From Candidatus Cloacimonadota bacterium (GTDB taxonomy: Bacteria; Cloacimonadota; Cloacimonadia; G963667145), in NCBI GenBank assembly GCA_963676615.1, contig OY781092.1, forward strand, positions 129,413 through 193,412: a stretch of DNA of 64,000 nt, in the 5' to 3' direction. The number at the start of each line of letters is the position of its first letter. Position 1 is the first letter of the stretch. Below, one piece after another: positions 8,550 through 55,823 of this stretch. A program made the position numbers and the translations under genes. The notes under the pieces are model-generated. The model was not told the DNA's origin. It did not search any database and worked only from the letters and a program-made list of their open reading frames with translations.

Positions 8550-10406
8550 TTAAGCAATCTCTTCCAAAACCTTTTTCAAGGTGTTTATAAAATTGCCCCA
8601 ATACTGTTTGTAGTCCGTGTTGCTGATGAGCCAAGGCGAAAGAATGCAGGCTCTGAGAACGCGCACGCTTTTAATTTTGTCCCATTCTGATCCAGGAATT
8701 TTGCAGTTTTCCACAAAGCTTTTTGGAGCGTCGCCATAGTTGTCAAATTCCAGCTCCGTCTTCGATGTGATAAAGTCAGTTTTGTAGATTGCGCCTGTTT
8801 TGTATGAGCATTTGTCGAATATTTTTTGATTAAGCTCGTTCATAGCATCTAGGCTGGTGTTGCCCTTTTCGTTAACGGAAAAACACACAATGTTGAAATC
8901 TGGATTGGTGAGCGGCGTAATTGTGTAAGTTTTGTCTTTGATTTTGAACTCGCCAAGCTCGACTAAAGCGTCGTAAAATCTGTCTGCGCCCTCAAGGCTT
9001 TTGCCGATTATTCTGCCGTATCCGTTCAAATTTAGCGGAACAGCGCGGTGAGCAGTCCAAACTGCTGCAGCAGAAGCTCCAGCTTTTGAGCCTTCCATAA
9101 TGTATGAGCCAAGAAGAGTTGGGCTGTTTTTCATTCCTTTTTCCAGGACATAGTTGGCAAAATACGAAATCATATCCAAGATTCTTCTGTCGCGAACCAC
9201 TATTGCGCCAGCAGCGTAAGGGACATAGCCCATCTTGTGCGGGTCGATGGTAGTCGAATCAGCCTCGCCCATAACTTTGTAGGCGTCATAGACAGATTTT
9301 TTTGGCCAGTTGATCTCCTTGTGAAGAATTACGCCTTCTTTGTGGAGTTTTGCGTTCATTTTGTCGTAATCCATAAATTTGTTGTCTTCGTCCAAGAAAA
9401 TAGTCCTTGCATATCCGCCATAAGCGGCGTCGATATGAAGGTAGAAGTTGATGCCTTTTTGGCGATACTCTTTGCGCAAAGCAACAATAGCTGCCACATC
9501 GTCCACAGCGCCTTCTTCGGTTGAGCCCATAACGGTAACGACTCCCATAATTGGGATTTTTTTCTCAACCAAAGAGTCGATAGTTTCCCGCAAATGGTTT
9601 AAGTCGGTTCTGAAATTTTCGTCAACTTGAACATTGATTAGGTTGTTTTTTCCAATTCCCAGCACATCAGCAGCTTTTGGCCAAGAGTAGTGCTTGCTTT
9701 GAGGCACCAAGATTTTTCCGAATTTGCCCGATTGTGTTCCCATTCCGCGCACAGAATAGTCTCGCATCTCTTCAAACTTGCCTGCTTTACGGACTTCGTC
9801 CACCAAATCGAGGGTGTCGTCAACATTCATGTTCATAAGTTCCCACTCACTTTTGCCCTTTACAAGCTCCGGCATAACTTTGCTGATTGCATATGGGATA
9901 GATTTTGTGTTTCTTGCCATCCAAAAACCTTCGTAGTTGGCGATTGTTCCGCCGCAAGTGATGTGTCCCCAGCCTTTTTTCTCGTCATAACCCAACATTT
10001 TCGCCAAATCTTTTCCAGCTTCAATCTCCAGTTCTGTGGTTGCTGGGCTCCCTTCGTAGGCGCAGTTGTTGGGATTGTAGAGAATGGTGGACATATAGCC
10101 CAAATTCGCAGCCATAAGGGTGTCGGAGTTCATTTGCCCAAGATAGCGAGGCGAAAACCAAGGCATCGAATCTTTTTTTAATTTTTCAGACAGTTCTTTC
10201 AGGGCGTCCATTGTTCTTTGCTGAGTTTGTCTAAAAACTTCCTCTCTTTTTTCTTCTGGCCTTATGGAGTCGCTGTCGTGAGGATGAAACTCCTTTCGCC
10301 ATTCCATATGCTCATTCATCATCATATTTAGAGTCTCTTTAAAAAACTCCTCGTTCTCAGATTTTGGACCCAAAAATAGAGCGTTTACATTGTCCTTCTT
10401 TTCCAT
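8550..10406 (-). CDS. tyrDC: PLP-dependent group II amino-acid decarboxylase, tyrosine-decarboxylase-like (618 aa)
   Basis: Group II decarboxylase signatures: HITCGGTIANYEGFW, HIDAAYGG and a PLP-lysine context (DPHKMGYVPY). N-terminus NALFLGPKSENEEF...NEHMEWRKEFHPHD resembles the enterococcal and lactobacillal TyrDC N-terminus as I recall it. Paired with an APC antiporter. Confidence 0.7.
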   Translation of the reverse strand: MEKKDNVNALFLGPKSENEEFFKETLNMMMNEHMEWRKEFHPHDSDSIRPEEKREEVFRQTQQRTMDALKELSEKLKKDSMPWFSPRYLGQMNSDTLMAANLGYMSTILYNPNNCAYEGSPATTELEIEAGKDLAKMLGYDEKKGWGHITCGGTIANYEGFWMARNTKSIPYAISKVMPELVKGKSEWELMNMNVDDTLDLVDEVRKAGKFEEMRDYSVRGMGTQSGKFGKILVPQSKHYSWPKAADVLGIGKNNLINVQVDENFRTDLNHLRETIDSLVEKKIPIMGVVTVMGSTEEGAVDDVAAIVALRKEYRQKGINFYLHIDAAYGGYARTIFLDEDNKFMDYDKMNAKLHKEGVILHKEINWPKKSVYDAYKVMGEADSTTIDPHKMGYVPYAAGAIVVRDRRILDMISYFANYVLEKGMKNSPTLLGSYIMEGSKAGASAAAVWTAHRAVPLNLNGYGRIIGKSLEGADRFYDALVELGEFKIKDKTYTITPLTNPDFNIVCFSVNEKGNTSLDAMNELNQKIFDKCSYKTGAIYKTDFITSKTELEFDNYGDAPKSFVENCKIPGSEWDKIKSVRVLRACILSPWLISNTDYKQYWGNFINTLKKVLEEIA

Positions 10407-10431
10407 TATAATTTCCTCCTATTATTTTTAT

Positions 10432-11865
10432 TTAATTTGCCTGATTTTTGAGTGCGGCTTCTTTCCAGCTCGGCTTTCTGAAGCTAAAGATTATGAAAGG
10501 AATAGCCAGCATAACCAAAGAACTGATGGCGATGAACAGTTTGTAAGATAGTGGGCTGGCAACATCAAGCTCTGATGGCGGAATAAAACCGACGAATATG
10601 GCAAACAAAGAAATGATAATTCCCACTATCGAAATCACCCAAATGCCCCAATTTCCGCCAGGAATTTTGTAGGCTCTGGGAACTTCTGGGTGTGAATATC
10701 TTAACTTGATAGCAGCTGTAAGCATTAGAATATACATTATTACATACAAAATTGCGGTTACATTTAAGACCATAATAAAAGTCGTGTTGATGTTTGGAAC
10801 AACTGCGTATGATAGACCGACGATAGAGATTAAGGTGGCTTGAATTATAACCAAAGTGGTTGGCGTTCCGTTTTTGTTGGTTTTAGAAAAAATTGGAGGC
10901 AAGTCTCCATTTTCGGCTGTTGCCAAAAAACCTTTAACAGGTCCCAAAATCCATGTGCTTACTTGTCCTACAGCGCCAAAACTGGTAAGAGCCGCCAAAA
11001 CAGGAACCAGCCAAAGAAGGTGAAATTGCCCGAAAAACTTTTCGAACGCTTCCATAAGACCTGCTACAAGGCTAATATCTTTTGCAGGCACAACAAAAGC
11101 AACCGCCATCGCGCCGACGACATTGATGACAACCATAATTAACCCAGTCATAAAAATAACTTTGGGAAAGTTTTTTTGAGGATTGTCAACTTCGTTGGCA
11201 TGAGCTGCAGAAGCTTCAATTCCTAGAAAAATAAAGAGAATAGTGGTGAAAATGGTGACATTATGGATGTTGGAAAAATTGGGGAAAATGTTTTTAGCCG
11301 TGAGAGCGAGGTTGATTTGAATTGGGTTTCCGCTAAAAAGATAAATAATTCCCAAAATGATTATGAGCGCTCCTGGAATAAAAACTCCCACTGTTACGCA
11401 GACTGTGCTCACCATACTTGATGTTTTCATTCCGCCGAGGTTTAGCAAGGTCGCTCCCCAGTAAACAATCAGAATGACCGCAACGATGAAAGTTTTGTTG
11501 GTCGCCAAAGCGGGGTTAATGATATAGGCAAGCGAGCCCGCTATGAAGCCCATAACGGCAACCATCCCGAAAATCATCTGAATCCATTGCAACCAGATGG
11601 CGAGGAATCCAAATCTTTCGCCAAAAGCTTCTCGAACCCAAGCATACACTCCACCTTTTTCTGGCCACCCTGTGGCTAATTCTGCAGAAACCAGCGCTGT
11701 TGGAATAAGAAATGTGATTACCGCAAGCAGTGAAAAGAAAATCATAGAAAGCCCAGTTGAAGCAAGCATCGGCAGATTTCGCACACTGACGATGAAAGCC
11801 GCAGTGACCATCGTGATCTTGAAAACACTGATTTTTTGAATTGAATTTTTGATTTTTTCTGTCAT
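10432..11865 (-). CDS. tyrP: APC-family amino-acid:amine antiporter (TyrP/GadC-like)
   Basis: 477 aa, about 12 TM helices. The SAELATGWPEKGGVYAWVREAFGERFGF motif resembles GadC/TyrP-type exchangers. Lies immediately upstream of, and in the same direction as, the decarboxylase. Confidence 0.65.
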   Translation of the reverse strand: MTEKIKNSIQKISVFKITMVTAAFIVSVRNLPMLASTGLSMIFFSLLAVITFLIPTALVSAELATGWPEKGGVYAWVREAFGERFGFLAIWLQWIQMIFGMVAVMGFIAGSLAYIINPALATNKTFIVAVILIVYWGATLLNLGGMKTSSMVSTVCVTVGVFIPGALIIILGIIYLFSGNPIQINLALTAKNIFPNFSNIHNVTIFTTILFIFLGIEASAAHANEVDNPQKNFPKVIFMTGLIMVVINVVGAMAVAFVVPAKDISLVAGLMEAFEKFFGQFHLLWLVPVLAALTSFGAVGQVSTWILGPVKGFLATAENGDLPPIFSKTNKNGTPTTLVIIQATLISIVGLSYAVVPNINTTFIMVLNVTAILYVIMYILMLTAAIKLRYSHPEVPRAYKIPGGNWGIWVISIVGIIISLFAIFVGFIPPSELDVASPLSYKLFIAISSLVMLAIPFIIFSFRKPSWKEAALKNQAN

Positions 11866-12000
11866 TTTTTCTCCTTTTATTATGTAGAAGTCCTTAACTA
11901 CATCCTCTTCGCATATGGATTTTTTTAGCTTTTAGTCAAGCTTCTTTTCTATCTATTTTTGTAGCAAAAAACCATTGACAAACTTTTTGCGTCTTTATTT

Positions 12001-12014
12001 TGTGCATATGCACA
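12001..12014. promoter_or_regulatory. perfect 14-bp palindrome TGTGCATATGCACA; candidate operator
   Basis: Seen directly in the 163-bp divergent intergenic region, about 20 nt upstream of the DUF134 ATG and just upstream of the AAGGAG RBS. No other perfect palindrome of this length was noticed in the neighbouring intergenic regions. Confidence 0.4.
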
Positions 12015-12034
12015 CAAGAAGCTAAGGAGTGTTT

Positions 12035-12319
12035 ATGACTAGAAGCCGTAAAATGCGGAAATGCAGGTATTTAGGAAACGACAGGGTTTTTAAGCCTTTG
12101 GGGGTGCCTCGTTGTGAGCTTGAGGAGGTTGTTGTTAGTTCCGAAGAGCTAGAGGCGCTACGGCTGTGCAATTACGAGGGCTGCAGTCAAATTCAGGCGG
12201 CAGAAAAGATGCATATTTCGCGAGGGTCGCTGCAACGCGATTTGGCTTCTGGTGCGACAAAAATTTTAGAGGCTATTTTGCACAACAAAGTGCTGGTAGT
12301 CAAGGGAGAGGACGACTGA
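12035..12319 (+). CDS. DUF134/UPF0251 family putative DNA-binding protein
   Basis: RKCRYLGNDRVFKPLGVPRCELEEVVVSSEELEALRLCNYEG matches the DUF134 signature (RKCR...FKPxGxP...LTLDELEALRL). ATG at 12035 follows AAGGAG. The track's GTG at 12029 lies inside the RBS. Confidence 0.75.
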   Translation: MTRSRKMRKCRYLGNDRVFKPLGVPRCELEEVVVSSEELEALRLCNYEGCSQIQAAEKMHISRGSLQRDLASGATKILEAILHNKVLVVKGEDD

Positions 12320-13131
12320 TGGAGCAAGATAGAGCCACGCAGATGGCGGAGCAAGACCAGAGAATTAAGGCGACTTTGAGCAAAATTAAGCACAAAGTGG
12401 TGGTGATGAGCGGAAAAGGCGGCGTTGGAAAATCGACGGTGACCAGCAATGTCGCCTATGGGCTTTCGCAAAGGGGCTATCAGGTCGGCATTTTGGACGC
12501 CGATTTGCACGGTCCGAACATCCCGGTGATGTTTGGTGGACACGGAAAACATCCGCAAGTGACGGGCAAGCCGTATCGGGTTAGCGAAAATTTGGCGATT
12601 GTCTCGCTGAGTTTTTATGCGGAAAATGTGAACGACCCAGCCGTGTGGCGAGGTCCTGCAAAGATTGGGGTGATTCGGCAGCTTTTGGCGGACATCGATT
12701 GGGGCGAGCTAGATTTTTTGCTGGTGGATTTGCCTCCCGGCACGGGCGATGAGCCGCTGACGATTGCCCAGACGATCAGCGATTGCGACGGTTGCATCAT
12801 CGTGACGACGCCGCAAGAGGTGGCTCTTGCCGACACGCGCAAATCTATCGGTTTTGCGGGGCTTTTGCAGATGAAGATTCTGGGAGTTATCGAAAATATG
12901 AGCGGTTTTGTGTGTCCGCATTGTGGCAAAACGACCGATATTTTCCAAAGCGGAGGTGGCGAAAAAACTGCCAAAGAGTATAAGCTGGATTTTTTGGGTA
13001 AAATTCCGCTGAATCCGCAAATAATGATGGGCGGCGACAATGGAACGCCGCAGATTGGGCTGAGCGACGATTCGCCGTTTTGGGCGATTGTGGATAAAGT
13101 CGAAAAAAAGATTAAAAATAAGGAGGATTGA
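12319..13131 (+). CDS. mrp: Mrp/ApbC/NBP35-family P-loop ATPase (Fe-S cluster carrier type)
   Basis: Deviant Walker A KGGVGKST. ILDADLHGPNIP and the CPHC motif (VCPHCGK) are typical of Mrp/ApbC. ATG overlaps the DUF134 stop (ATGA). The upstream in-frame extension in the track is judged not coding. Confidence 0.8.
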   Translation: MEQDRATQMAEQDQRIKATLSKIKHKVVVMSGKGGVGKSTVTSNVAYGLSQRGYQVGILDADLHGPNIPVMFGGHGKHPQVTGKPYRVSENLAIVSLSFYAENVNDPAVWRGPAKIGVIRQLLADIDWGELDFLLVDLPPGTGDEPLTIAQTISDCDGCIIVTTPQEVALADTRKSIGFAGLLQMKILGVIENMSGFVCPHCGKTTDIFQSGGGEKTAKEYKLDFLGKIPLNPQIMMGGDNGTPQIGLSDDSPFWAIVDKVEKKIKNKED

Positions 13132-13132
13132 G

Positions 13133-13342
13133 ATGCCAGGTTTAGACGGAAAAGGTCCTAACGGACAAGGAAGTATGAGCGGAAGAGGCTTGGGCAGATG
13201 TGCAGGCGAGGAAAACCTCAACGACAGAGATTTTTTGGGAAGAGGCAGACGATTTGCTGGAAGAGGCAGAGGGCTTGGAATGGGTAGACGAAACAGATTT
13301 TTCGCTCCCAAAGCAGCAGATACGAGTGATGCCAAAGAGTAA
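13133..13342 (+). CDS. small Gly/Arg-rich protein (DUF5320-like)
   Basis: MPGLDGKGPNGQGSMSGRGLGRCAG... resembles the small MPxxDGTGPxGxGPxTGRGxGxC proteins I recall co-occurring with Mrp/NifX-like clusters in anaerobes. Strong AGGAGG RBS at 13121-13126. Confidence 0.5.
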   Translation: MPGLDGKGPNGQGSMSGRGLGRCAGEENLNDRDFLGRGRRFAGRGRGLGMGRRNRFFAPKAADTSDAKE

Positions 13343-14234
13343 GGACAAAATTTTTGAGACTCCAAAAGGGTTTCGTATCGCCATAGCCAGTGGCAAAGGT
13401 GGCACGGGCAAGACGACGCTGTCGGTGAATTTGAGTCGCTGGCTGGCGCAAAAACAGAAGGTGCGATTGGTCGATTTGGATGTCGAAGAGCCAAATTCGG
13501 GGCTTTTTTTGGCGATGTCCGCCGAGCAAAAGCGCTCTGTGAAGCGGAAAATTCCTGCTTGGGATAAAAGCAGTTGCCTTTTTTGCGGGAATTGTCAAAA
13601 AGTTTGCAATTTCAACTCGATTATTCAGACTCAGAGTTTGGTGCTGATTTTTCAGCAGCTATGTCACAGTTGCAGGGCGTGCTTCGAGCTTTGTCCTGCG
13701 GGAGCTTTGCAGCCGAGCGATTACACAGTTGGGCAGGTCAGCTTTTTTGAAGACGAAAATTTGCAGTTTATTGAAGGAAGGCTCGATGTCGGTCAGGAGC
13801 AGGCGGTGCCTGTGATTGCCGAGGTTTTGGACTATTTGGACGAAAATCCGCTTGATGAAGGGTTGACGATTATCGATTCGCCGCCTGGCGCGGCGTGTCC
13901 TGCGGTGGAGACTTTTGGTAGAGCCGATTTTGTGCTGCTGGTGGTCGAGCCGACGCCTTTTGGGCTTTATGACGGTTCGCTGGCGATAAAAGTGACGCAA
14001 GAGCTGGGCAAGCCCGTGGCGGTGGTGGTTAATAAGTGGTCGGGCGATAGCGATTTGCTGCAAGAATTTGTCGCCGAAAATTCGGTGGAAGTGATTACCA
14101 AAATTGGTGAGAGCAAAAAAATCGCCGAAAATTATTCGAACGGTCAGCTGATTTACGAGGATAATCCCGAAGTTCAACAAAATTTGCAGGAGATTTACGA
14201 CTATTTTTGCGCTAAAGTGGAGGCGCTTCGATGA
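13329..14234 (+). CDS. MinD/CooC-superfamily P-loop ATPase with an inserted 2x[4Fe-4S] ferredoxin domain
   Basis: Walker A IASGKGGTGKTT. Ferredoxin motifs CLFCGNCQKVC and CHSCRACFELCP. Start at the ATG in ...RVMPKSK. The upstream ORF extension overlaps the previous gene and lacks domain content. Confidence 0.7.
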   Translation: MPKSKDKIFETPKGFRIAIASGKGGTGKTTLSVNLSRWLAQKQKVRLVDLDVEEPNSGLFLAMSAEQKRSVKRKIPAWDKSSCLFCGNCQKVCNFNSIIQTQSLVLIFQQLCHSCRACFELCPAGALQPSDYTVGQVSFFEDENLQFIEGRLDVGQEQAVPVIAEVLDYLDENPLDEGLTIIDSPPGAACPAVETFGRADFVLLVVEPTPFGLYDGSLAIKVTQELGKPVAVVVNKWSGDSDLLQEFVAENSVEVITKIGESKKIAENYSNGQLIYEDNPEVQQNLQEIYDYFCAKVEALR

Positions 14235-15106
14235 AAGATTTGCGAGAATTTGTGGTGATTTCTGGCAAAGGCGGAACGGGCAAAACGACTGTCAGCTCTG
14301 CTCTTGCGTTGATTGGCAAAGAAGAGCTGATTTTGGCAGATTGCGATGTTGACGCTCCAGATTTGCATTTGGTGATGAGTCCTGATGTGCGAGAAAAAGA
14401 AGATTTTTACGCTGGCGAGCTGGCGAAAATCGATGCGGCAAAATGCGTGGCTTGCGGCAAATGTCAAGAGGTCTGCGCTTTTTCGGCTGTGCAAAAAAAA
14501 GATATCGTTTTCAGGATTGAGCCGTTTTCCTGCGAGGGTTGTGGATATTGCGCGCGGATTTGCCCCGCAGAAGCGATCGAGAATTTGCCACGACTGACAG
14601 GGCAAGTGCTGATTTCGCAAATCAAGACGAAAACGACGATGGTGCACGCAAATCTGGCTGTCGGCGGCGAAAATTCGGGCAAGTTGGTGGCTGAGTTGAA
14701 AAATCGAGCCAAAAAAATTGCGGAGGAAGCTGGCAAAAAGATTGTTCTGGTGGACGGATCGCCTGGAATTGGCTGTCCAGTGGTTTCCAGTTTGTCGGGC
14801 GCGAGCATTGTTTTACTGGTGGTTGAGCCGAGCGTTTCGGGTTTGCACGATCTGAAAAGGGTGCTGGAGCTGGTGAAAAAGTTCCACATTCAAGCGGCGG
14901 CGATTATCAACAAAGCGGATATTAACTTGCAAATAACCCAAAAAATCGAAAATTTTTTGGCTGAGCAAGGCGTGCAGGTTTTGGCGCAACTTCCTTACGA
15001 CAAAGCTTTTTCTAGAGCGATAATTGGCGGCAAGTCGATTGTGGAGTGCGACGATGAGTATCGCAAAATTTTTGCGGAAATTTACAAAAAATTAAAAGAG
15101 ATATAG
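14231..15106 (+). CDS. MinD/CooC-superfamily P-loop ATPase with an inserted 2x[4Fe-4S] ferredoxin domain (paralogue)
   Basis: Walker A ISGKGGTGKTT. CVACGKCQEVC and CEGCGYCARICP. 4-nt overlap with the preceding gene. Confidence 0.75.
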   Translation: MKDLREFVVISGKGGTGKTTVSSALALIGKEELILADCDVDAPDLHLVMSPDVREKEDFYAGELAKIDAAKCVACGKCQEVCAFSAVQKKDIVFRIEPFSCEGCGYCARICPAEAIENLPRLTGQVLISQIKTKTTMVHANLAVGGENSGKLVAELKNRAKKIAEEAGKKIVLVDGSPGIGCPVVSSLSGASIVLLVVEPSVSGLHDLKRVLELVKKFHIQAAAIINKADINLQITQKIENFLAEQGVQVLAQLPYDKAFSRAIIGGKSIVECDDEYRKIFAEIYKKLKEI

Positions 15107-15114
15107 GAGAAAAA

Positions 15115-15450
15115 ATGAAATTTGCAATAACATCTAAAGGGCAAAGTTTGAGCGATTCTGTCGATCCTCGATTTGGGCGGACGGACTTTTTGCTGATTTG
15201 CGAAGACGAGAAAGTTTTGGAGGCGATAGACAATTCAGCGAGCAAAGATCAGGCGCACGGTGTTGGTCCTGTAACGGCTTCCAAGCTAGAGGGCAAAGGC
15301 GTCGAAGTGGTCATCACGGGCAACGGACCTGGCGGAAATGCCAAGAGGGTGCTGGACGAATTGGGCATCAAAATGTATGTTGGCGCCGCTGGAATGAACG
15401 GCCAAGAGGCTATCGCCGCCTACAAAAACGGCGAATTGAAGCTGTTTTAG
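15115..15450 (+). CDS. NifX/NifB-type dinitrogenase FeMo-cofactor-binding-domain protein
   Basis: 111 aa. MKFAITSKG...FGRTDFLLI...VVITGNGPGGNA...LGIKMY fits the Nitro_FeMo-Co domain pattern. RBS AGGAG upstream. Confidence 0.7.
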   Translation: MKFAITSKGQSLSDSVDPRFGRTDFLLICEDEKVLEAIDNSASKDQAHGVGPVTASKLEGKGVEVVITGNGPGGNAKRVLDELGIKMYVGAAGMNGQEAIAAYKNGELKLF

Positions 15451-15465
15451 GCGAAGGAGAAAAAA

Positions 15466-15816
15466 ATGAGAATTGCGTTTCCGACGAACGATAAAATAAA
15501 TGTTGAGGAGCATTTTGGGCATTGCGCTTTTTTTGCTCTGGTCGATGTGGAGGGCGGCAAGATTGCCAAAACCGAGTTTGTGAGCTCGCCAGAGCACGCT
15601 CCGGGAGTGATGCCGAAATTTTTGGGAGAGCAAAAAGCCGATGTGATTATCACGGGCGGAATGGGCTCGATGGCGATAAATTTGTTTAATCAGCAAAATA
15701 TTCAGACCGTTTTGGGCGCCAGCGGCAGCATCGAAAATTTGGTGAGCGACTATTTGGCTGGAAACCTTGCCAGCAAAGGTTCTGCTTGCACAGATCACGC
15801 AAGAGGTTGTCACTAA
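15466..15816 (+). CDS. NifX/NifB-type dinitrogenase FeMo-cofactor-binding-domain protein (second copy)
   Basis: MRIAFPTNDKINVEEHFGHCAFFALVDV...VIITGGMGSMA...IQTV matches the same family. RBS AAGGAG upstream. Confidence 0.75.
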   Translation: MRIAFPTNDKINVEEHFGHCAFFALVDVEGGKIAKTEFVSSPEHAPGVMPKFLGEQKADVIITGGMGSMAINLFNQQNIQTVLGASGSIENLVSDYLAGNLASKGSACTDHARGCH

Positions 15817-15817
15817 A

Positions 15818-16606
15818 ATGGCGAAAAGTTTAATAAAGCCGAAGTTTAAAGCTCTTTTAATCCTTTTCCTGGGTTTTACTCTTCTGGCTTTATTTTTTTG
15901 GAAATTTGATTTACTAGGCAAAGATCGTGGAGCTCCCGTGGCGGTTTTGGGAGCTCCGCCTTGTCTTGAAAAAGCGCTGGAACAGATTTTGGCAGAGCGT
16001 TATCCAAGCGGCGACAGACCTTTTTCGGTGAACTATGCCACTCCGCCTGTGCTGGTTAAGCAGTTGCAAAACGGGCGCGATTACGGCGTGATTATCAGCG
16101 GCAATCGCAAATGGAGCGACTATCTCGCCAAAGAAGGCTACTACAGCCAGAGCGCAGTGATTTTGGGCAACGAGCTGGTGGTGATTGTGCAGAAAAGTTC
16201 GGATTTGCAGGTGAACTCTCCGCAAGATATTTTGCAGGGAAAAAAGATAGCTATGGCGGACTATTCGCACGCCCCGATGGGAAAATATGTGAAAAAATAT
16301 TTGCAAAATCACGGAATTTGGCAGGCGGCAAAGCAGAAAGCGGTGTGTGCACTGAACGATGTGGCAGCATTGAGTATGGTTGCCTCGGGCAGCGTGGATC
16401 TTGGAATCGTGGCGTATTCTGATGCGCAGGCGTCTTCGCAGGTGAAAATCGTTTACACTCTCAGAAAAAAAGTGCCTTCGATCGAGTTCGAGGCGATTGT
16501 TATCAAAGATTGTCCGCAAGAGCTAAAAGATTTTTACGATTATCTGATTTTGCCGTCAACATTGGACAAGTTTTGCGCCAGCGGGTTCAAAAATTTACGC
16601 TTGTGA
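15818..16606 (+). CDS. modA: ModA-like molybdate/tungstate periplasmic binding protein, orphan (no modBC adjacent)
   Basis: N-terminal membrane anchor/signal. YSHAPMGKYVKKYL...GSVDLGIVAYSDA resembles the ModA pattern (PxGxY...G.AD.GIVYxTDA). Start taken at the ATG in VTKMAKSL; the ORF track's upstream extension overlaps the previous gene. Confidence 0.55.
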   Translation: MAKSLIKPKFKALLILFLGFTLLALFFWKFDLLGKDRGAPVAVLGAPPCLEKALEQILAERYPSGDRPFSVNYATPPVLVKQLQNGRDYGVIISGNRKWSDYLAKEGYYSQSAVILGNELVVIVQKSSDLQVNSPQDILQGKKIAMADYSHAPMGKYVKKYLQNHGIWQAAKQKAVCALNDVAALSMVASGSVDLGIVAYSDAQASSQVKIVYTLRKKVPSIEFEAIVIKDCPQELKDFYDYLILPSTLDKFCASGFKNLRL

Positions 16607-16616
16607 GGTAGCAAAA

Positions 16617-17351
16617 GTGAAAAATTATTTACAATTGGGAATCGAGGAAGTGAAAAAACAGCTGGTGGACGAGTTGCAGTTGCAGGTGTCGATCAGCGTC
16701 AAAGGTTTGAGCGTGGAGCAGGCTATCGGCAGTCCCAAACGGCAAGATTTTCCTATTCAAAAGGGCAAAGAGATTTTGATTCAGGCGGATTTTCAGGGGT
16801 TCAAAGGTCAGGCGTTTACCACTCATCCGACCGATTTTGTCGGCAGTTTGGGCGAAGTTTTTGCGCTGGATAGCCAGAACGCTCGTGATAGAGCTTTGCT
16901 GGTGGCGACTCTCAACGCCGTGGCGAGTTATCTGGGCGCGTGCGAAAAGTGCGTGCATTGCAAAGACGAAGAGCCAGAAGAGTGCGGGCTTTGGATAGCG
17001 CAACAGTTGCAAGGCGAAAAAGGAAAAATTGCGATGATTGGGCTAAACCCTGCGATTTTGCAAAAGCTAGTCGAAGCTGGCTTGCAAGTGCGTTGTAGCG
17101 ACCTTGATCCCGACTGGATTGGCAAGCAAAAATTCGGCATCACCATCGAAGACGGCAGCAAAGTCAACGCTGAGCTTCTGCAAACAAGCGACTTTATCCT
17201 TTTCACAGGCTCGACTCTCTGCAACGACTCGTTCGACGAAATTATGGACGCCATAACAAAAAACGGCAAAGATTACGCCATCTTCGGCACTACAGCCGCA
17301 GGCGTTTGCGGGCTAATGAAGCTCAAGCGATTTTGCTATATGGGAAAGTAA
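16617..17351 (+). CDS. DUF364/DUF4213-like Rossmann-type protein with a Cys cluster (putative metal chelation)
   Basis: 244 aa. CEKCVHC...EEC cysteine cluster. Rossmann-like C-terminal half. Family assignment from memory only. Confidence 0.35.
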   Translation: MKNYLQLGIEEVKKQLVDELQLQVSISVKGLSVEQAIGSPKRQDFPIQKGKEILIQADFQGFKGQAFTTHPTDFVGSLGEVFALDSQNARDRALLVATLNAVASYLGACEKCVHCKDEEPEECGLWIAQQLQGEKGKIAMIGLNPAILQKLVEAGLQVRCSDLDPDWIGKQKFGITIEDGSKVNAELLQTSDFILFTGSTLCNDSFDEIMDAITKNGKDYAIFGTTAAGVCGLMKLKRFCYMGK

Positions 17352-17456
17352 TTGCGCTCAATAGTTTGTTCTAAAATCTAGGCGCGCAGAATAAAATCAA
17401 TCAAATCGAAAAAACAAGTTGACAGTCAAACAGCTAAAAATTTTTTGAGAAAAATT

Positions 17457-17531
17457 GCGGGAGTAGCTCAGCGGTAGAGCATCACGTTGCCAACGTGAGG
17501 GTCGCGAGTTCAAATCTCGTCTTCCGCTCCA
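17457..17531 (+). tRNA. tRNA-Gly (anticodon GCC)
   Basis: 75-nt cloverleaf. Acceptor gcgggag/cttccgc. Anticodon loop ttGCCaa. GTTCAAATC T-arm. CCA encoded. Confidence 0.85.
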
Positions 17532-17542
17532 TTTTTTTTTGT

Positions 17543-17616
17543 GGCGACATCGCCAAGTGGTAAGGCAAGGGTCTGCAAAATCCTCATCCCCAGTTCGAAT
17601 CTGGGTGTCGCCTCCA
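17543..17616 (+). tRNA. tRNA-Cys (anticodon GCA)
   Basis: 74 nt. Acceptor ggcgaca/tgtcgcc. Anticodon loop ctGCAaa. GTTCGAATC T-arm. CCA encoded. Confidence 0.85.
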
Positions 17617-17630
17617 ATTTCAAAAATCGA

Positions 17631-17718
17631 GCCGGAGTGGTGGAATTGGTAGACACAAGGGACTTAAAATCCCTCGGGCTTTTAGCCTGTACCGGTTCAA
17701 GTCCGGTCTCTGGTACCA
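17631..17718 (+). tRNA. tRNA-Leu (anticodon TAA)
   Basis: 88 nt with long variable arm. 5' end gccggagtggtggaattggtagac is typical of tRNA-Leu. Anticodon loop ctTAAaa. CCA encoded. Confidence 0.85.
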
Positions 17719-17727
17719 ATTATGACT

Positions 17728-17758
17728 AAGTCGTCTTTAACAAAAGGGCGACTTTTTT
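17728..17758 (+). terminator. hairpin plus T-run after the tRNA cluster
   Basis: aagtcgtc / ggcgactt 8-bp stem (one G-U) with an 11-nt loop, followed by tttttt. It ends only ~4 nt before the GTG start of the next gene. Confidence 0.4.
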
Positions 17759-17761
17759 AAT

Positions 17762-19066
17762 GTGAAAAGTGAAAAAATCGTGAACTCTCCGCAAAAAATC
17801 GTCTCTATCATCTCTTTCGGCTGCAAAGTCAACAGCTACGAAGCCGCTTGCATCGGCGACGATTTTGCGCAAAAATACAAAGTTATCCCCTATTTTACCG
17901 AAAAAGCGTCGGTTTTTGTGGTGAATAGCTGCACGGTGACTGCAAGAGCAGGCGCCAAGTGTCGCCAGACAATTCGCAAAATTTTGCGGCTAAAGCAGGC
18001 AGACCAACGCATCGTCCTAGTTGTCACGGGTTGCCTTGCTAATTTGGAGGCGGAGCGCATCAGGGCGCTGGGCGATGTGGACTATGTGCTTTCGGACAAA
18101 TCGCAGATTTTCGCCGTCTTACAAAAAAAATCAGCGCCTACTGCATCAGAAAAAAAGCCCGCAAAATATATCGAGCAAACGACCTCGCAAATGTTTGGAA
18201 AAACGCGCGCTTTCGTCAAAATTCAGGACGGCTGCAACTTTTTTTGCGCCTATTGCATAATCCCCTATGCTCGCGGCGTGCCAGTTTTTCGCTCGCCACA
18301 AAAAGTTTTGCAACAGATTGAACTTCTGGTAAAAAACGGCTACAGCGAGATTGTTCTCGGCGGCATCAATATCGGATTATACGCTTGCGACGGCTGGAGT
18401 TTGCAAGATTTGCTTTTTGCTATCGAAAAAATCAAGGGGCTTGATAAAATCAGAATTTCGTCGATTGAGCCGCAACATTTGGCGTCGATTTGGGACTTCA
18501 TCTGCAAAAGCAAAAAACTGGCGCACCATCTGCATATCCCGCTGCAATCGGGCAGTGGCAAGGTCTTGCAAGCGATGGGGCGTCGATATTTGACGCAAGA
18601 TTTTACCGAAATTGTGCAAAGTTTGAAAAAATTGGACTCGCATTTTGCTATCGGATGCGATGTTATTATAGGCTTTCCTGGCGAAAGTGAGCGAGATTTT
18701 TCGAACTGCTACGATTTTATCGCCGCTTTGCCGATAAGCTATTTGCACATCTTCCCCTACTCTTTGCGAGCTGGCACAAAGGCAGCCAAGATGCCTAGTC
18801 ACATTTCAGCGTCTCAGAAAAAAAAGCGAGCGTCGATTTTGTCGGAACTTGCCGAAGAGAAAAAAAAGCAATTTGCCCAAAAACTGCTAGACGACAAAGT
18901 GGTTTTGAGCGCTCAGCTTGAGCAAAAAAAAGGAGATTTCGCTGTGGGTGTAAGTGATTACTATGTCAATGTTTACTTGCAAAATTTGCCCGCAGATGGC
19001 AGGAGGCTAAAAGTTATCGGCAAAGAGCTTTTTCGCGACGGGCTACTCGCCGAAGTTGTTGACTAA
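17762..19066 (+). CDS. mtaB: radical-SAM methylthiotransferase, MiaB/MtaB family
   Basis: N-terminal MTTase domain (ISFGCKVNSYE...VVNSCTVT). Radical-SAM CNFFCAYCIIP. C-terminal TRAM-like region. GTG start. Confidence 0.7.
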   Translation: MKSEKIVNSPQKIVSIISFGCKVNSYEAACIGDDFAQKYKVIPYFTEKASVFVVNSCTVTARAGAKCRQTIRKILRLKQADQRIVLVVTGCLANLEAERIRALGDVDYVLSDKSQIFAVLQKKSAPTASEKKPAKYIEQTTSQMFGKTRAFVKIQDGCNFFCAYCIIPYARGVPVFRSPQKVLQQIELLVKNGYSEIVLGGINIGLYACDGWSLQDLLFAIEKIKGLDKIRISSIEPQHLASIWDFICKSKKLAHHLHIPLQSGSGKVLQAMGRRYLTQDFTEIVQSLKKLDSHFAIGCDVIIGFPGESERDFSNCYDFIAALPISYLHIFPYSLRAGTKAAKMPSHISASQKKKRASILSELAEEKKKQFAQKLLDDKVVLSAQLEQKKGDFAVGVSDYYVNVYLQNLPADGRRLKVIGKELFRDGLLAEVVD

Positions 19067-25841: not shown

Positions 25842-27851
25842 ATGTCACATCGTTTAATATTGGGAATAAAAATGCGAACAAGAAAATTTATACTGTTTTT
25901 ACTTGTTTTTTGGACTTTCGGTCTTTTGCAGGCTCAGTACCCTTTTGAAAGTGGTAGCAATGAGCCGCTTAGTGTCGTAATGTATGCAGACAAGATTGCC
26001 AGGGGCTATGAGGTTCGCCTCGCTTCGACTTTGTCGTCTTATTGTGAGAGAGGAACTTATGAGGTTGATGTAACTGTTAACCTGAAGCCAAGGCAAGCTT
26101 CGAGTGGTCAGCTTGACATTGTGTCTTCCTCTTCTGCAGATTTGTCTGACGGCATAGTGATGCCAGGAACTAACGGCAGGTTCGTGAACGAGTTTATCGA
26201 TGAGTTTGCGAATGAGAGCCAGCCAGCGCAACCGATGATGTCTTACGGCAATCCGCTACAAGGCTCTGTTGGGTCTGGAAATCCAAGCGATTACGAAATT
26301 GAAAATGTTGTAATAAATGTGATGCTCGATGCTTCGGATTACACTCCAGAAGATGTCTCTTTTATAGACGAGTTGGTGAGAATGAAGTCTGGCGTCGATG
26401 TTTATCGTGGAGATGCGGTAAATGTGTCGCTGGTGAAGTTCACCAATCAGAAGCAAAAAATGCTGGAAGAGGCTCAAAAAGCTGAAGAGCTTAAAAAGAA
26501 GCAGGAAGAAGAGGCGAGAAAAGAGGCAGAGGCGGAAGAGGAGAGAAGGAAAAGGGAAGAGGCTGAAAATCAAACGCCGCCAGAAGAAGAGTCGAATTTC
26601 TTGTTTTACTTGATAATCGGATTGATTGGGCTGTTTGTCCTTATTGGACTTATTGTTTCACTGTTCTTTATCTCCAAAAGACACGCTGCGGCAGACGCGA
26701 ATATGGTTCAGCCGAAAGTAAATTTCCCTCGCTATGATGAACAGTTTGATAGCTTGATGCAAGAGATGCGAGAGTTAAAGAAAGTTAATTTGACTCCGAA
26801 GCCAGAGCGAATGGAAATTGCAGAATATAAAAGACTTCGCTCGTTTGCAATCAATAAATTTTTAGCAGAAGGAAAAAATGTTTCTATCGTTTTGCGTGGC
26901 TGGGTTGATAGTGGCGGAGACGAGGGCGTCGATAAGGCGTCTAAGTTGATAAAGGCGATAGATGAGAACTTGCTTGATCTTTTAGAAGAAAATATTGCTC
27001 ATGACGATTTTAAACTTTTGTCGTGGAATGTTCGTAATATGGAAGAGCTTGATACGAAGACGAAGCTAGAAGCTTTGCAAAACTTTAAAAATGCTTGGAG
27101 CTCTTTGACTGTTACCGATGATAGCGACGCTGATTCTGGAATGTTTGGTTTCTTGAATGCAATGTCTGTCGAACAAATACGGCAAGCTCTCAAGGGCGAG
27201 TCCGATGGTGTTCAGGCGTTGGTAATTACGCAAGTGGCTGCCGACAAAGCGTCAGAGATTTTGGCGTCCTACTCTTCGGAGCAACGCTCTGCAATTATGG
27301 GAAATATGGGCAAGCTTGGCAAAATCCCAACTTCTATCTACAAAGAAGTTTCTAGCAGGCTGGCTCGAGAAGCTCTTAAGATGCGTGGAATGGAATATGT
27401 TTCTTCGGATGGTGCTGGCAAAATGCTGGAGATTTTGGACACACTTTCTACAGCACAGCAAGAAGAGTTTATCGACGAAATTTCTAAGGCTGATGTAAAC
27501 ACTGCAGAACAAGTGTTGAAGTATTTCATAACATTTGAGAGTTTGGATGAATTAGAAGACGATATTTTAGTGAAAGCTATGCAAAAAATGGATAGAACGC
27601 TGTTGTCTGCCGCTTTGGTTGGCGTAGATGGTGTGAAATCTGATAGAATATTGTCGAATATTCCAGAAAGAATGCGTGAGATTGTAAAGTCTGAGCTTGC
27701 GGTGAATGAAAATAAACTTAAGCCTGACGATGTCGAAAAAGCTAGGCGAAAGATGATGGCGATTGTTAGAAAGGAAATTAAAGAAGCTGGCGGTCGAAAT
27801 ATTGGGTCGTCTGAATCTTCGGAAGAGGAAGGGGTGAGCGATGAGTATTAA
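25842..27851 (+). CDS. membrane protein: periplasmic FliF-RBM3-like region, one TM helix, cytoplasmic FliG-like domain (FliF-FliG-like fusion)
   Basis: Signal/TM at N-terminus (alternative ATG at 25872). NVVINVMLDAS...FIDELVRMKSGVDVYRGDAVNVSLVKF resembles the conserved FliF C-terminal ring-building motif (...VAVVVD...GFD..RGDSV.V...F). Lys/Glu coiled coil, then TM helix FLFYLIIGLIGLFVLIGLIVSLFF. C-terminus ILSNIPERMREIVKSELAVNENKLKPDDVEKARRKMMAIVRKE aligns with the FliG C-terminal torque-helix region. Confidence 0.55.
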   Translation: MSHRLILGIKMRTRKFILFLLVFWTFGLLQAQYPFESGSNEPLSVVMYADKIARGYEVRLASTLSSYCERGTYEVDVTVNLKPRQASSGQLDIVSSSSADLSDGIVMPGTNGRFVNEFIDEFANESQPAQPMMSYGNPLQGSVGSGNPSDYEIENVVINVMLDASDYTPEDVSFIDELVRMKSGVDVYRGDAVNVSLVKFTNQKQKMLEEAQKAEELKKKQEEEARKEAEAEEERRKREEAENQTPPEEESNFLFYLIIGLIGLFVLIGLIVSLFFISKRHAAADANMVQPKVNFPRYDEQFDSLMQEMRELKKVNLTPKPERMEIAEYKRLRSFAINKFLAEGKNVSIVLRGWVDSGGDEGVDKASKLIKAIDENLLDLLEENIAHDDFKLLSWNVRNMEELDTKTKLEALQNFKNAWSSLTVTDDSDADSGMFGFLNAMSVEQIRQALKGESDGVQALVITQVAADKASEILASYSSEQRSAIMGNMGKLGKIPTSIYKEVSSRLAREALKMRGMEYVSSDGAGKMLEILDTLSTAQQEEFIDEISKADVNTAEQVLKYFITFESLDELEDDILVKAMQKMDRTLLSAALVGVDGVKSDRILSNIPERMREIVKSELAVNENKLKPDDVEKARRKMMAIVRKEIKEAGGRNIGSSESSEEEGVSDEY

Positions 27852-54774: not shown

Positions 54775-54929
54775 AATAATCTTTGTTTTTTTTTAAGTGA
54801 AATCGAAAATGTTAATAAATTGTCAAGAATTAAAGAGATAAAAGCCAAATTTAGAAAAAAGATTTGACAAATAATGAGTGTAAATCCGATTTAGGGAATA
54901 TAAAAAATGAGGAAACAGACGAGGGAAAA

Positions 54930-55823
54930 ATGCTAAAGAACAAACTATTTCTATTTATTGGGTTTATGGTGGTTTTGCAGATTTTGGTGTCTTGGGTAGG
55001 TTTGGGCTCAGATTTGAACATTGGCACGAACCCGGCAACGGGGAAGTTTGCGGTGTGGAATTCGCCGAACGACAACTCGATCCAAAAGCAGATTTTGACC
55101 GAGTTTCAGCCAGATCAATACCTAGCGGAAAATGGCGGCACTGGCGAAATCTTGGGCAGCGCCGCTCTCTACGGTTTTTTTGCTAAATTCACCGCTTCGC
55201 CTTTGGGCACATCCAAACTTCTGTTTATGATTTTGGTCGTCGATTTGCTTCTTTTGGCTGGAGCGATTTTTGTCGCCAAAACCGCGAGCTTTATCCCTGG
55301 TAAATGGCAATTGTTGTGGGAAAATATCTACAATTTTTTTGCGGAACTCGTGGGCGACTCGCTGGGTAAAGACCGTCTGAACTTTTTGCCATACATCGCC
55401 ACGATTTTTCTTTTTATTCTAATGAGCAACATTTTGGGCGTTGTGCCTGGACTCTCCGAGCCAACCAGAAACCTGAATGTGCCGCTGGGAATGGGCATCG
55501 TCGCCAATGTCGTGGTGCACTTTATGATGATAAAAGTCAAGGGCGCTTGGGGCTATATGAAAGGCTACGCTGAGCCGATGTTTTTCCTAACGCCGCTGAA
55601 TGTTTTGGGCGAAGCATCAAAGCTGGTGTCGATTTCGTTCCGTTTGTTCGGCAACATTTTGGGCGGCTCGATTATCTGCGTTGTGATCTCCAACTTGACC
55701 AAATTTATCGTTTTCCCGATGTTTCTTTCGGGATTTTTTGGAATATTTATCGGCATTATTCAAGCGTTTGTGTTTACAATGCTCTCGCTTTCGTATCTAA
55801 GTGCTGGAATAGTAGAGGAATAA
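54930..55823 (+). CDS. atpB: F-type ATP synthase subunit a
   Basis: Conserved Arg in ISFRLFGNILGG. Five or six TM helices. RBS GAGGGA ahead of the ATG at 54930. The track ORF's 22-codon extension is probably not translated. Confidence 0.8.
   Translation: MLKNKLFLFIGFMVVLQILVSWVGLGSDLNIGTNPATGKFAVWNSPNDNSIQKQILTEFQPDQYLAENGGTGEILGSAALYGFFAKFTASPLGTSKLLFMILVVDLLLLAGAIFVAKTASFIPGKWQLLWENIYNFFAELVGDSLGKDRLNFLPYIATIFLFILMSNILGVVPGLSEPTRNLNVPLGMGIVANVVVHFMMIKVKGAWGYMKGYAEPMFFLTPLNVLGEASKLVSISFRLFGNILGGSIICVVISNLTKFIVFPMFLSGFFGIFIGIIQAFVFTMLSLSYLSAGIVEE

Follow-up and report, generated by a model that had tools for sequence, protein, structure and literature searches.

The subject of this study is a cluster of nine genes (g1 to g9) at positions 12035–17351 of a 64,000-nucleotide stretch of DNA from a Candidatus Cloacimonadota bacterium (contig OY781092.1), itself a portion of a circular 1.57-Mb metagenome contig. 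This whole stretch is referred to as the window, and coordinates are given relative to it unless another locus is named. The nine genes form a real single operon with a sigma70-type promoter. We consider it rather probable that the operon encodes a system for handling metal–sulfur clusters of the orange protein (ORP) type, together with its own repressor, and that it works by the mechanism set out below. The repressor would be the product of the first gene, g1, a member of family DUF134. Sequence comparison suggests that g1 is a repressor not characterised before, with a 14-base operator that hardly varies among at least 12 bacterial phyla.

Nine genes in one operon

The nine co-directional, tightly packed genes proposed in a sequence-only reading of this DNA were all recovered on the + strand with unchanged coordinates. 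Every family assignment made there, including those to the NifX-like and ModA families, was borne out by curated profile thresholds or by fold. The elements of the operon are as follows, with the evidence for each.

11975..11980 (+): -35 hexamer TTGACA of the operon promoter (sequence reading; kept in loci L009 and L010 with the same 15-nt spacer)
11996..12001 (+): -10 hexamer TATTTT, whose last T is base 1 of the palindrome (sequence reading; promoter phasing)
12001..12014 (no strand): perfect 14-bp palindrome TGTGCATATGCACA, proposed DUF134 operator (footprint, locus counts and motif-first sample)
12024..12029 (+): g1 ribosome-binding site AAGGAG, 5 nt ahead of the ATG at 12035 (sequence reading)
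12035..12319 (+): g1, DUF134 protein, predicted helix-turn-helix (HTH) repressor, 94 aa (PF02001, E 1.7e-16; AlphaFold model)
12319..13131 (+): g2, Mrp/NBP35-type Fe–S carrier ATPase, 270 aa (PF10609, E 1e-91; MrpORP model, 343 bits)
13133..13342 (+): g3, small Gly/Arg-rich DUF5320 protein, 69 aa (PF17253, E 5.7e-13)
13329..14234 (+): g4, MinD-type ATPase with an inserted 2x[4Fe-4S] ferredoxin domain, 301 aa, Orp3/Orp4-like (CbiA and Fer4 families)
14231..15106 (+): g5, second MinD-ferredoxin ATPase, 291 aa, Orp3/Orp4-like (CbiA and Fer4 families)
15115..15450 (+): g6, single-domain Nitro_FeMo-Co protein of ORP/TM1290/MTH1175 type, 111 aa (PF02579, E 2e-13)
15466..15816 (+): g7, Nitro_FeMo-Co protein of TM1816/PH0822/MrpORP-C-terminal type, 116 aa (PF02579, E 9e-20)
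15818..16606 (+): g8, ModA-type solute-binding protein with an N-terminal hydrophobic anchor, 262 aa (TIGR01256, 101.3 bits, cutoff 62.5)
16617..17351 (+): g9, two-domain DUF364 protein with a GTG start, 244 aa (PF04016, E 8.5e-11; fold match)

The operon-like packing that had been proposed holds, with intergenic gaps from g1 to g9 of -1, +1, -14, -4, +8, +15, +1 and +10 nt, and gene order is identical in five related Cloacimonadota genomes, where the cluster lies between the same lipopolysaccharide (LPS) genes and mtaB. The closest of the genomes found are ~1.55-Mb Candidatus Cloacimonadota/Cloacimonadales chromosomes, with g1 identity of 75-90%. The genes directly upstream of the cluster differ among the five genomes, and because order within the cluster is constant while these neighbours vary, the cluster behaves as a unit. 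Promoter-like and terminator-like matches inside the operon do not exceed the number expected from shuffled sequence. The TTGACA-15-TATTTT promoter was missed by a generic promoter scan owing to its short spacer. Control of the operon by a riboswitch or other RNA was considered and rejected, as a search of 11000-18000 found no known RNA besides three downstream tRNAs.

Public annotation fuses g3 into g4 as one 344-aa call. The separate DUF5320 frame is supported over this merged call because it has its own Pfam match and because orthologues are called in L003, L006, L009 and L010; DUF5320 is missing in L011.

Some features of the immediate surroundings were also recorded. Just upstream, at 8550-11865 on the - strand, the window carries a tyrosine-decarboxylase-like pyridoxal phosphate (PLP) enzyme and an amino-acid antiporter. 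At the corresponding place the L003/L012 genome instead has a DpnI-type restriction-modification set, a cation-efflux protein and a cupin (L003, 5849-9744), forming a variable island beside the operon. Downstream, a tRNA array of Gly(GCC), Cys(GCA) and Leu(TAA) lies at 17457-17718 (+), ~105 nt 3′ of g9. The interval between g9 and the array contains no terminator-like site, and the first such site comes past tRNA-Leu, at 17728-17754.

The core proteins correspond to the Desulfovibrio ORP system

The Desulfovibrio ORP complex has reportedly been under study since 2011. In Desulfovibrio vulgaris it comprises Orp3 and Orp4 (MinD-like, each with two [4Fe-4S] motifs), Orp5 and Orp8 (Nitro_FeMo-Co proteins) and Orp9, or MrpORP, which joins an Mrp domain to a Nitro_FeMo-Co domain (PMC6345978). 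Through a CXXC motif, MrpORP holds a bridging [4Fe-4S] cluster (Pardoux et al. 2019, PMC6345978). The Di-Nase domain of the same protein holds a [3Fe-4S] cluster that has been attributed to CxHFGHCE and CDH motifs, and Fe–S transfer from MrpORP to Orp3-Orp4-Orp8 has been obtained in vitro (PMC6345978).

Judged by profile matches and motifs, g2 is a homologue of the N-terminal domain of Orp9, g4 and g5 are homologues of Orp3/Orp4, g6 of ORP/Orp8, and g7 of the C-terminal domain of Orp9. The best NCBIfam match of g2 is the MrpORP model NF041136, covering positions 1-251 with 343 bits, while g7 matches positions 265-365 of the same model, its C-terminal domain, with 104 bits. Both fall short of the 450-bit cutoff because the two domains are here separate genes. 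Motifs common to MrpORP and the g2/g7 pair include the Walker A, the CXXC, the HFGHC and the C-terminal C(x)DH. The g2 translation contains the deviant Walker A GKGGVGKS and a CPHC (CXXC) motif; that of g7 contains EEHFGHC, without the first Cys of the MrpORP motif CxHFGHCE, and a CTDHARGCH tail.

The two ATPases, g4 and g5, are 30% identical, and each carries a pair of CxxCxxCxxxC-type motifs (CLFCGNCQKVC and CHSCRACFELCP in g4, CVACGKCQEVC and CEGCGYCARICP in g5). Matches of g5 in the PDB cover the MinD and ferredoxin parts only separately. In L006 (3190-4051), a JGI contig, the second MinD-ferredoxin gene is broken into pieces of 92 and 159/212 aa, through either a frameshift or pseudogene formation or an assembly error.

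The two Nitro_FeMo-Co proteins share just 28% identity over 80 residues and have different nearest structures. For g6, the best matches are TM1290 (1rdu, 1.5e-12), the Desulfovibrio gigas orange protein (2wfb, 4.7e-11, residues 2-108) and MTH1175 (1eo1), the weakest at 7.7e-11, all of them single-domain proteins of similar size that g6 matches over its own full length. For g7, they are 2yx6 and 1t3v (PH0822 and TM1816). The D. gigas orange protein, of the ORP/TM1290 subgroup, carries a Mo–Cu sulfide cluster (PMC6345978). This [S2MoS2CuS2MoS2] cluster is held non-covalently, hence no ligand motif can be checked in the g6 sequence. Neither protein is NifX proper: against TIGR02663, g7 scores 19.5 bits (cutoff 112) and g6 gives no match. 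The FeMo-cofactor carriers NifX, NafY and the NifB C-terminal domain share the PF02579 domain and the character of a small carrier of a complex metal–sulfur cluster, but their partners are NifEN and NifH, where here we see MinD-ferredoxin ATPases and no nif genes in the window.

The resemblance to the D. vulgaris Hildenborough system (orp3-orp4-orp5 and orp7-orp8-orp9) thus takes in paired paralogous MinD ATPases with two [4Fe-4S] motifs, single-domain Nitro_FeMo-Co proteins (with g7 possibly corresponding to Orp5) and an Mrp/NBP35 carrier with CXXC. Both systems come from anaerobes and both are genomically clustered. The differences lie in architecture and control. Two divergent operons in D. 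vulgaris are replaced here by one; MrpORP is fused there and split here into g2 and g7, ~2.3 kb apart; and DUF5320, ModA and DUF364 genes are additional here. The D. vulgaris operons depend on sigma54, OrpR and integration host factor (IHF), in contrast to the sigma70-type promoter and DUF134 palindrome of the present operon, and we found neither a gene for an enhancer-binding protein (EBP) in the window nor a GG-N10-GC element upstream of the operon. A query with the MrpORP fusion, made to locate the Desulfovibrio orp locus itself, returned no named Desulfovibrio protein among its best 120 matches; it did bring to light the PadR-linked ORP cores described below.

In short, homology indicates that the window encodes all ORP component types and that the locus is a Cloacimonadota variant of a known system. 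The sequence-only reading had presented the cluster as conserved but functionally unassigned, and had overlooked that its core is the already described Desulfovibrio ORP system. It was right that no physiological function has been defined, but not that experiment is silent, since the Desulfovibrio complex, its Fe–S transfer, its localisation and its control by OrpR have been shown (PMC6345978, PMC8359166, PMC3897727). Expression of orp in Desulfovibrio needs sigma54, IHF and the redox-sensing EBP OrpR (PMC8359166, PMC3897727, PMC4672049), and is shut off when the redox potential is raised (PMC8359166). MrpORP of D. vulgaris has a polar localisation (PMC6345978, PMC8359166, PMC4672049). A 2021 paper calls the ORP proteins' role 'still unclear' and offers cell division as a hypothesis (PMC8359166).

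A palindrome phased on the promoter

The g1 protein matches PF02001 with 61 bits (cutoff 27) and shows a weak match to Sigma70_r4_2 as well. Its AlphaFold model, with a mean predicted local distance difference test (pLDDT) score of 93.6, consists of a small N-terminal beta element followed by three helices that superpose on region 4 of extracytoplasmic function (ECF) sigma factors to <1 A over ~47 residues; comparison of the model with known folds found no solved DUF134 structure. On the evidence of this model, g1 is a sigma70-region-4-like HTH protein. The proposal that the operon is headed by its own small DNA-binding protein therefore gains both a predicted HTH fold and a conserved palindrome lying on the promoter.

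The palindrome, TGTGCATATGCACA, occurs once in the window, with no further operator copies in the 64 kb. A phylogenetic footprint across three Cloacimonadota lineages reveals an invariant block, TTATTT[T/C]GTGCATATGCACA, in an intergenic region that has otherwise diverged beyond alignment.

To see the site in a broader setting, DUF134 loci were collected from other genomes. An exhaustive search with g1 against the HMMER library found 1724 DUF134 relatives at E<=1e-3, compared with 3 from a word-indexed search. The genome scan was anchored on a 12-sequence DUF134 alignment, a 70-sequence alignment being too diverse. It yielded at least 581 matches, of which the 80 best-scoring loci, picked with the pattern [DE]E[LF]EA[LMI]RLC and ranked by similarity to g1, were analysed. 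At least 12 phyla are represented: Cloacimonadota, Fusobacteriota, Spirochaetota, Izemoplasmatales (Mycoplasmatota), Bacillota, Thermotogota, Bipolaricaulota, Gemmatimonadota, Ignavibacteriota, Margulisiibacteriota, GN15, Verrucomicrobiota and Desulfuromonadales.

The 1.15 Mb of sequence in these loci holds 55 exact copies of TGTGCATATGCACA, against 0.003 expected from composition, and 13 copies with one mismatch, against 0.15 expected. At up to two mismatches, 72/80 loci have a site, and in most of the 80 the identical 14-mer lies upstream of the DUF134 gene. Where DUF134 is instead the last gene of the cluster, as in several Spirochaetota, the site is found ahead of the first cluster gene. 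A good sigma70 promoter could be identified at 43/49 palindrome sites, and the spacing falls into two classes: in 19/43 promoters the palindrome begins 1 base short of the -10 hexamer's end, and in 20/43 it begins 5 bases beyond that end (39/43 together). The window palindrome belongs to the 19-case class, overlapping the last -10 base. Because it is phased on the end of the -10 hexamer, the position of the palindrome is, to judge from these sequences, that of the site of a repressor and not of an activator.

A motif-first test gave a view of the site free of DUF134 anchoring. The bare 14-mer was scanned in a metagenome collection and 120 contigs were returned; in 21/120 it stands directly upstream of a DUF134 or g7-type gene. 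No recurrent family was found downstream of the motif in the other 99. In 43 of these the motif lies within a long open reading frame (ORF), which points to chance matches of the kind expected in a very large collection.

These data also bear on two other ways of explaining the palindrome, namely that it is the operator of an unlinked global regulator, or a hairpin in the 5′ leader RNA, with DUF134 doing something else. The 14-mer could fold into a 5-bp hairpin, and ~80% of its metagenome occurrences are away from DUF134 genes. The last figure loses force when one considers the 99 unlinked contigs described above. In addition, no DNA-binding protein other than DUF134 accompanies the motif through more than 12 phyla, and the motif shifts to whichever cluster gene comes first. 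The RNA-hairpin reading was rejected, as transcripts of the overlapping class should start inside the palindrome and so could not hold both arms; nor does the leader match any Rfam family.

To our knowledge, the half-sites TGTGCA-TA-TGCACA match none of the consensus motifs of CRP/FNR, Rex, Fur, IscR or NsrR. The arrangement recalls control by ModE, the molybdenum cofactor (Moco) riboswitch, IscR and NsrR, in the similar logic of a dimeric HTH repressor at a palindrome over the promoter of a metal-handling operon. Neither ModE nor the Moco riboswitch is present at the locus, and the DUF134 fold, a sigma70-region-4-like HTH with an N-terminal beta element, is unrelated to the Rrf2 and ModE folds. 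The literature searched contained no functional study of DUF134/UPF0251/COG1342 and no paper on the 14-mer motif.

Several of the surveyed loci contain extra sites. In five Gemmatimonadota contigs (L026, L046, L049, L054 and L055), exact copies of TGTGCATATGCACA lie ahead of divergently oriented genes for CGGC-domain proteins and 4HBT thioesterases; in two Spirochaetota contigs (L015 and L017) they lie ahead of DUF1007 genes and, in L088, of a PLP enzyme of Cys/Met metabolism beside a VKOR-thioredoxin protein. Palindrome sites also stand before DUF5320 genes in L015, L017 and L057. The genes behind the extra copies are candidate members of a DUF134 regulon, which from their annotation looks like a metal/sulfur regulon.

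The g1 protein contains two cysteines, Cys10 (12062-12064) and Cys45 (12167-12169), and the pair is kept in 35/70 of the closest DUF134 relatives. In the motif-first sample, TGTGCATATGCACA also precedes DUF134 proteins that lack Cys45, a residue that the pattern used in the genome scan demanded. Within the regulator, the pair may constitute a redox or metal site that is optional.

A recurrent module and its Cloacimonadota additions

Gene context was counted in the 40 DUF134 loci with at least 6 kb on either side. Loci were annotated per domain with ad hoc profiles built from trimmed window proteins, and ORFs were called naively. A NifX-like gene lies near DUF134 in 36/40 loci, and two or more MinD-ferredoxin genes in 24/40; Mrp (12/40) and DUF5320 (10/40) are less regular companions. 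ModA and DUF364 appear in only 2/40 and 4/40 loci, all of them from Cloacimonadota. The recurrent module is DUF134 with a g7-type gene, a g6-type gene and two MinD-ferredoxin genes, with or without Mrp and DUF5320, and ModA with DUF364 is a Cloacimonadota add-on outside the recurrent combination. The earlier statement that the whole combination recurs in many anaerobes thus stands for the DUF134/NifX-like/MinD-ferredoxin core and fails for its ModA and DUF364 genes.

The link between DUF134 and g7-type proteins is closer than mere neighbourhood. In 13/80 loci DUF134 is fused to a Cys/His-tailed g7-type domain, and in 22/80 it is followed directly by a g7-type gene (35/80 together). Within this g7-type (NifXb) family, an HFG[H/S/R] loop is found in 58/63 members and a C-terminal Cys tail, usually rich in His, in 60/63. 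The loop and tail are the same elements that have been proposed for the [3Fe-4S] cluster of MrpORP. True MrpORP fusion also occurs among the DUF134 loci, as in L079; an Ilyobacter locus has it.

ORP-type cores are also found with other regulators, namely a PAS-sigma54 EBP in L211 and PadR in L212-L214. The latter three are Armatimonadota-like contigs with a true MrpORP fusion, PadR, an unannotated gene of 64-74 aa and no DUF134; L214 has in addition NifU_N and a methyltransferase-4HBT fusion.

We tentatively propose that DUF134, together with a Cys/His-tailed Nitro_FeMo-Co domain that may be fused to it, adjacent or in the same operon, forms a family of repressors that respond to metalloclusters, a family not described before and very widely distributed. 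To this broader claim we assign somewhat less than an even chance.

ModA, DUF364 and the link to molybdenum and tungsten

The best PDB matches of g8 are all ModA proteins, with Escherichia coli ModA (1amf) at E 1.3e-21. We take the oxyanion ligand positions of the E. coli protein to be S12, S39, A125, V152 and Y170; the residues aligned with these in g8 are C49, P76, M154, D181 and A199. In ModA, two of these five ligands contribute backbone groups, and the residues employed differ in other ModAs. Cys49 (15962-15964) lies in the motif GAPPCLEK, which is conserved in other ModAs linked to DUF364. Across these DUF364-linked ModAs (g8, L006, L009, L010 and L209) we see a Cys in G(A/V)PPCL at the Ser12 position, Pro or Ala at the Ser39 position and Ala at the Tyr170 position. 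The Cys at the Ser12 position may reflect a different, perhaps thiolated, ligand.

For g9, the match to PF04016 is limited to residues 132-227, in the C-terminal half, and there is no significant sequence match in the PDB with the protein alone or as a profile (profile E 0.57). In Foldseek its AlphaFold model (pLDDT 89) matches 3npg (E 1.5e-9) and 3l5o (E 9e-6) at full length over ~233 columns, with a template modelling (TM) score of ~0.55. The predicted structure is accordingly the two-domain DUF364 fold, enolase-N-like (the N-terminal domain, DUF4213) plus Rossmann-like. The solved DUF364 proteins Dhaf4260 (3l5o) and PH1506 (3npg) share with g9 this fold and a link to ModA or transporters, but g9 differs from them in its lack of significant sequence similarity, in its ORP-type operon setting and in its own set of His and Cys residues, H114, C115, C123 and C240 being invariant in its subfamily of 170 relatives.

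DUF364 homologues occur in three further settings. One forms a simple pair with ModA (L209). Another is the last gene of an operon with MobA-like, MoeA, MoaA, MoaC, MOSC and MogA-like genes (L210). The third is in L211, a Reinekea-like gammaproteobacterial contig with three NifX-like and two MinD-ferredoxin genes under control of a sigma54 EBP, followed by modABC and DUF364; regulator and gene order both differ from those of the window operon. Gene content here indicates that on at least two independent occasions an ORP-type core became linked to Mo uptake and DUF364, which supports the Mo/W link and a Mo/W-sulfide cargo. Upstream in L211 (130-345), we also noted the palindromes GGTTGCAGTTTTGCAACC and GGTTGCATCTTTGCA and a GG-N10-GC element, resembling the published OrpR box GGGCGYRTTTTGCGCCC. 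In the literature, DUF364 is genomically tied to transporters of Mo, W, V and Fe (Miller et al. 2010), and in Methanococcus maripaludis a DUF364 gene in a modABC operon is cofit with nifH (bioRxiv 10.1101/2024.03.05.583561).

Family searches of the 64-kb window detected no nitrogenase or nif genes, no Mo/W enzymes that could be candidate clients and no modBC, in keeping with the earlier remarks that nitrogenase is missing here and that ModA lacks its permease. ModA itself is gone from L011 and from L003/L012, two sister genomes in which the cluster is otherwise retained. The suggestion of Mo/W trafficking is made plausible by the occurrence of DUF364 beside ModA, in a Moco operon and with modABC in an independent ORP-type cluster; the 'cofactor insertion' that was suggested with it still has to be inferred.

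Proposed mechanism and competing explanations

In the mechanism we favour, a g1 dimer would bind TGTGCATATGCACA, occlude the -10/start region and block open-complex formation, resulting in autorepression. The g7 protein, a partner of g1 here and a fused domain elsewhere, would report cluster or metal occupancy to g1 and thereby relieve or enforce repression. A sensor role is proposed for g7 because its HFGHC motif and Cys/His tail correspond to those of the [3Fe-4S]-binding Di-Nase domain of MrpORP. By analogy with MrpORP in vitro, Mrp (g2) may hand [4Fe-4S] clusters to the g4/g5 ATPase pair, which could spend ATP and low-potential electrons on loading, remodelling or unloading inorganic clusters on g6 and g7. 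In this lineage, g8, with its membrane anchor, and the DUF364 protein g9 would couple this system to the supply of molybdate or tungstate, supplying or processing Mo/W. Given that coupling, the cargo is probably a Mo(W)–S or mixed-metal sulfide cluster rather than Fe–S alone.

A number of points weigh against this scheme. Homologies, operon structure, operator statistics and fusions are observed directly, but from these sequences we infer that g1 binds DNA and represses, that g7 is a sensor, which way clusters flow and what the cargo is. A near-invariant operator holds for one DUF134 subfamily and the motif-first sample, not for all 1724 relatives, and in the window g7 is neither fused to g1 nor adjoining it. 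The physical complex and the passage of clusters from Mrp to the ATPases are documented for the D. vulgaris and D. alaskensis proteins only (PMC6345978), and the only in vivo phenotype reported in Desulfovibrio is an altered cell morphology. A sigma54 EBP (L211) or PadR (L212-L214) regulates ORP-type cores elsewhere. As to the metal, Mo/W supply is not essential to the core, since two sister genomes keep the core without ModA; modBC and Mo/W enzymes are absent from the 64 kb; and the ligand of g8 is uncertain, with three of the five presumed oxyanion-ligand positions differing from E. coli ModA (C49, P76 and A199).

The main rival takes up the question of cargo. It holds that the core serves general Fe–S, or thioferrate-type iron–sulfide, storage and delivery for the low-potential enzymes of a strict anaerobe and is not specific to Mo/W, ModA and DUF364 being a separate two-gene uptake module at the 3′ end. 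In vitro, Fe–S clusters are all that the MrpORP protein and its Di-Nase domain bind; IssA, of the same family, binds thioferrate (PMC6345978). Genomic data can be read the same way: the core persists without ModA in L011 and L003/L012, the ModA and DUF364 pair is free-standing in L209, NifU_N adjoins the ORP-type core in L214, and both add-on genes are rare in the 40 counted loci. What tells against a purely iron-based function is that g6 is closest to the ORP/TM1290 subgroup, with its Mo–Cu sulfide member from D. gigas (PMC6345978), that the L211 core has independently joined a Mo transporter and DUF364, and that the gaps at g7/g8 and g8/g9 are only 1 and 10 nt. We regard this explanation as unlikely, if clearly the best of the alternatives.

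The authors of the Desulfovibrio ORP work have proposed a cell-division or positioning apparatus, in which septum or chromosome placement would be the task of the ATPases, with the metal centres acting only as redox switches. Three of the nine proteins are indeed P-loop ATPases of the MinD/ParA superfamily, inactivation of OrpR leads to morphological defects, and MrpORP is polar in D. vulgaris (PMC6345978, PMC8359166, PMC4672049). The conserved partners, however, are cluster carriers and not division proteins. The further genes that share the operator are related to metal or sulfur (CGGC, DUF1007 and the Cys/Met PLP enzyme), the neighbours in other genomes are Moco biosynthesis, modABC and NifU genes, and linked division genes are absent from all 80 loci. 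The papers themselves call the division role a hypothesis, and for the present operon we consider it very improbable. Least likely of all, for the reasons given with the operator data, is a palindrome that serves an unlinked regulator or a leader hairpin while DUF134 does something else.

Other genes of the window

Elsewhere the window is occupied by housekeeping genes (RnfB, LPS glycosyltransferases, F-type ATPase, FtsH, TilS and histidine biosynthesis). Three proteins encoded there were also noted. The F-type ATP synthase c subunit at 55827-56576 (+) is a triplicated, fused protein of 249 aa with three ATP-synt_C repeats, beside a normal a subunit at 54864-55823. A giant ORF of 2687 aa at 45035-53098 (-) contains 23 DUF285 (BspA-like leucine-rich) repeats. 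A 669-aa protein at 25842-27851 (+) carries FliG middle and C-terminal domains in its C-terminal third, and its first ~430 residues have no Pfam or NCBIfam match at the thresholds used.

Implications

Beyond the known ORP system, the additions made here are the DUF134 repressor/operator pair, the regulator-carrier fusions and the repeated association with Mo uptake and DUF364, none of which was found described in the literature searched. Few 'anaerobe-specific' gene sets are as well conserved as the ORP complex, yet ten years after it was defined its role continues to be called unclear. Outside the Desulfobacterota, control of the ORP genes would fall to a small HTH protein whose operator is sharply defined, which makes the regulon and its inducing signal tractable. 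The repeated fusion of the regulator to g7-type domains assigns a likely sensory role to a NifX-like protein hitherto seen purely as a carrier. With the motif and the family links, genome annotation can treat DUF134, DUF5320 and the COG1149-type ATPases jointly as one functional module. If the proposed repressor family is real, the 14-bp operator TGTGCATATGCACA would have remained all but unchanged in over a dozen bacterial phyla, with a core regulon made up of the ORP system and small metal/sulfur sets (CGGC, DUF1007 transporter components and DUF5320), and the effector of the regulator would reveal the cargo and function of the ORP complex.

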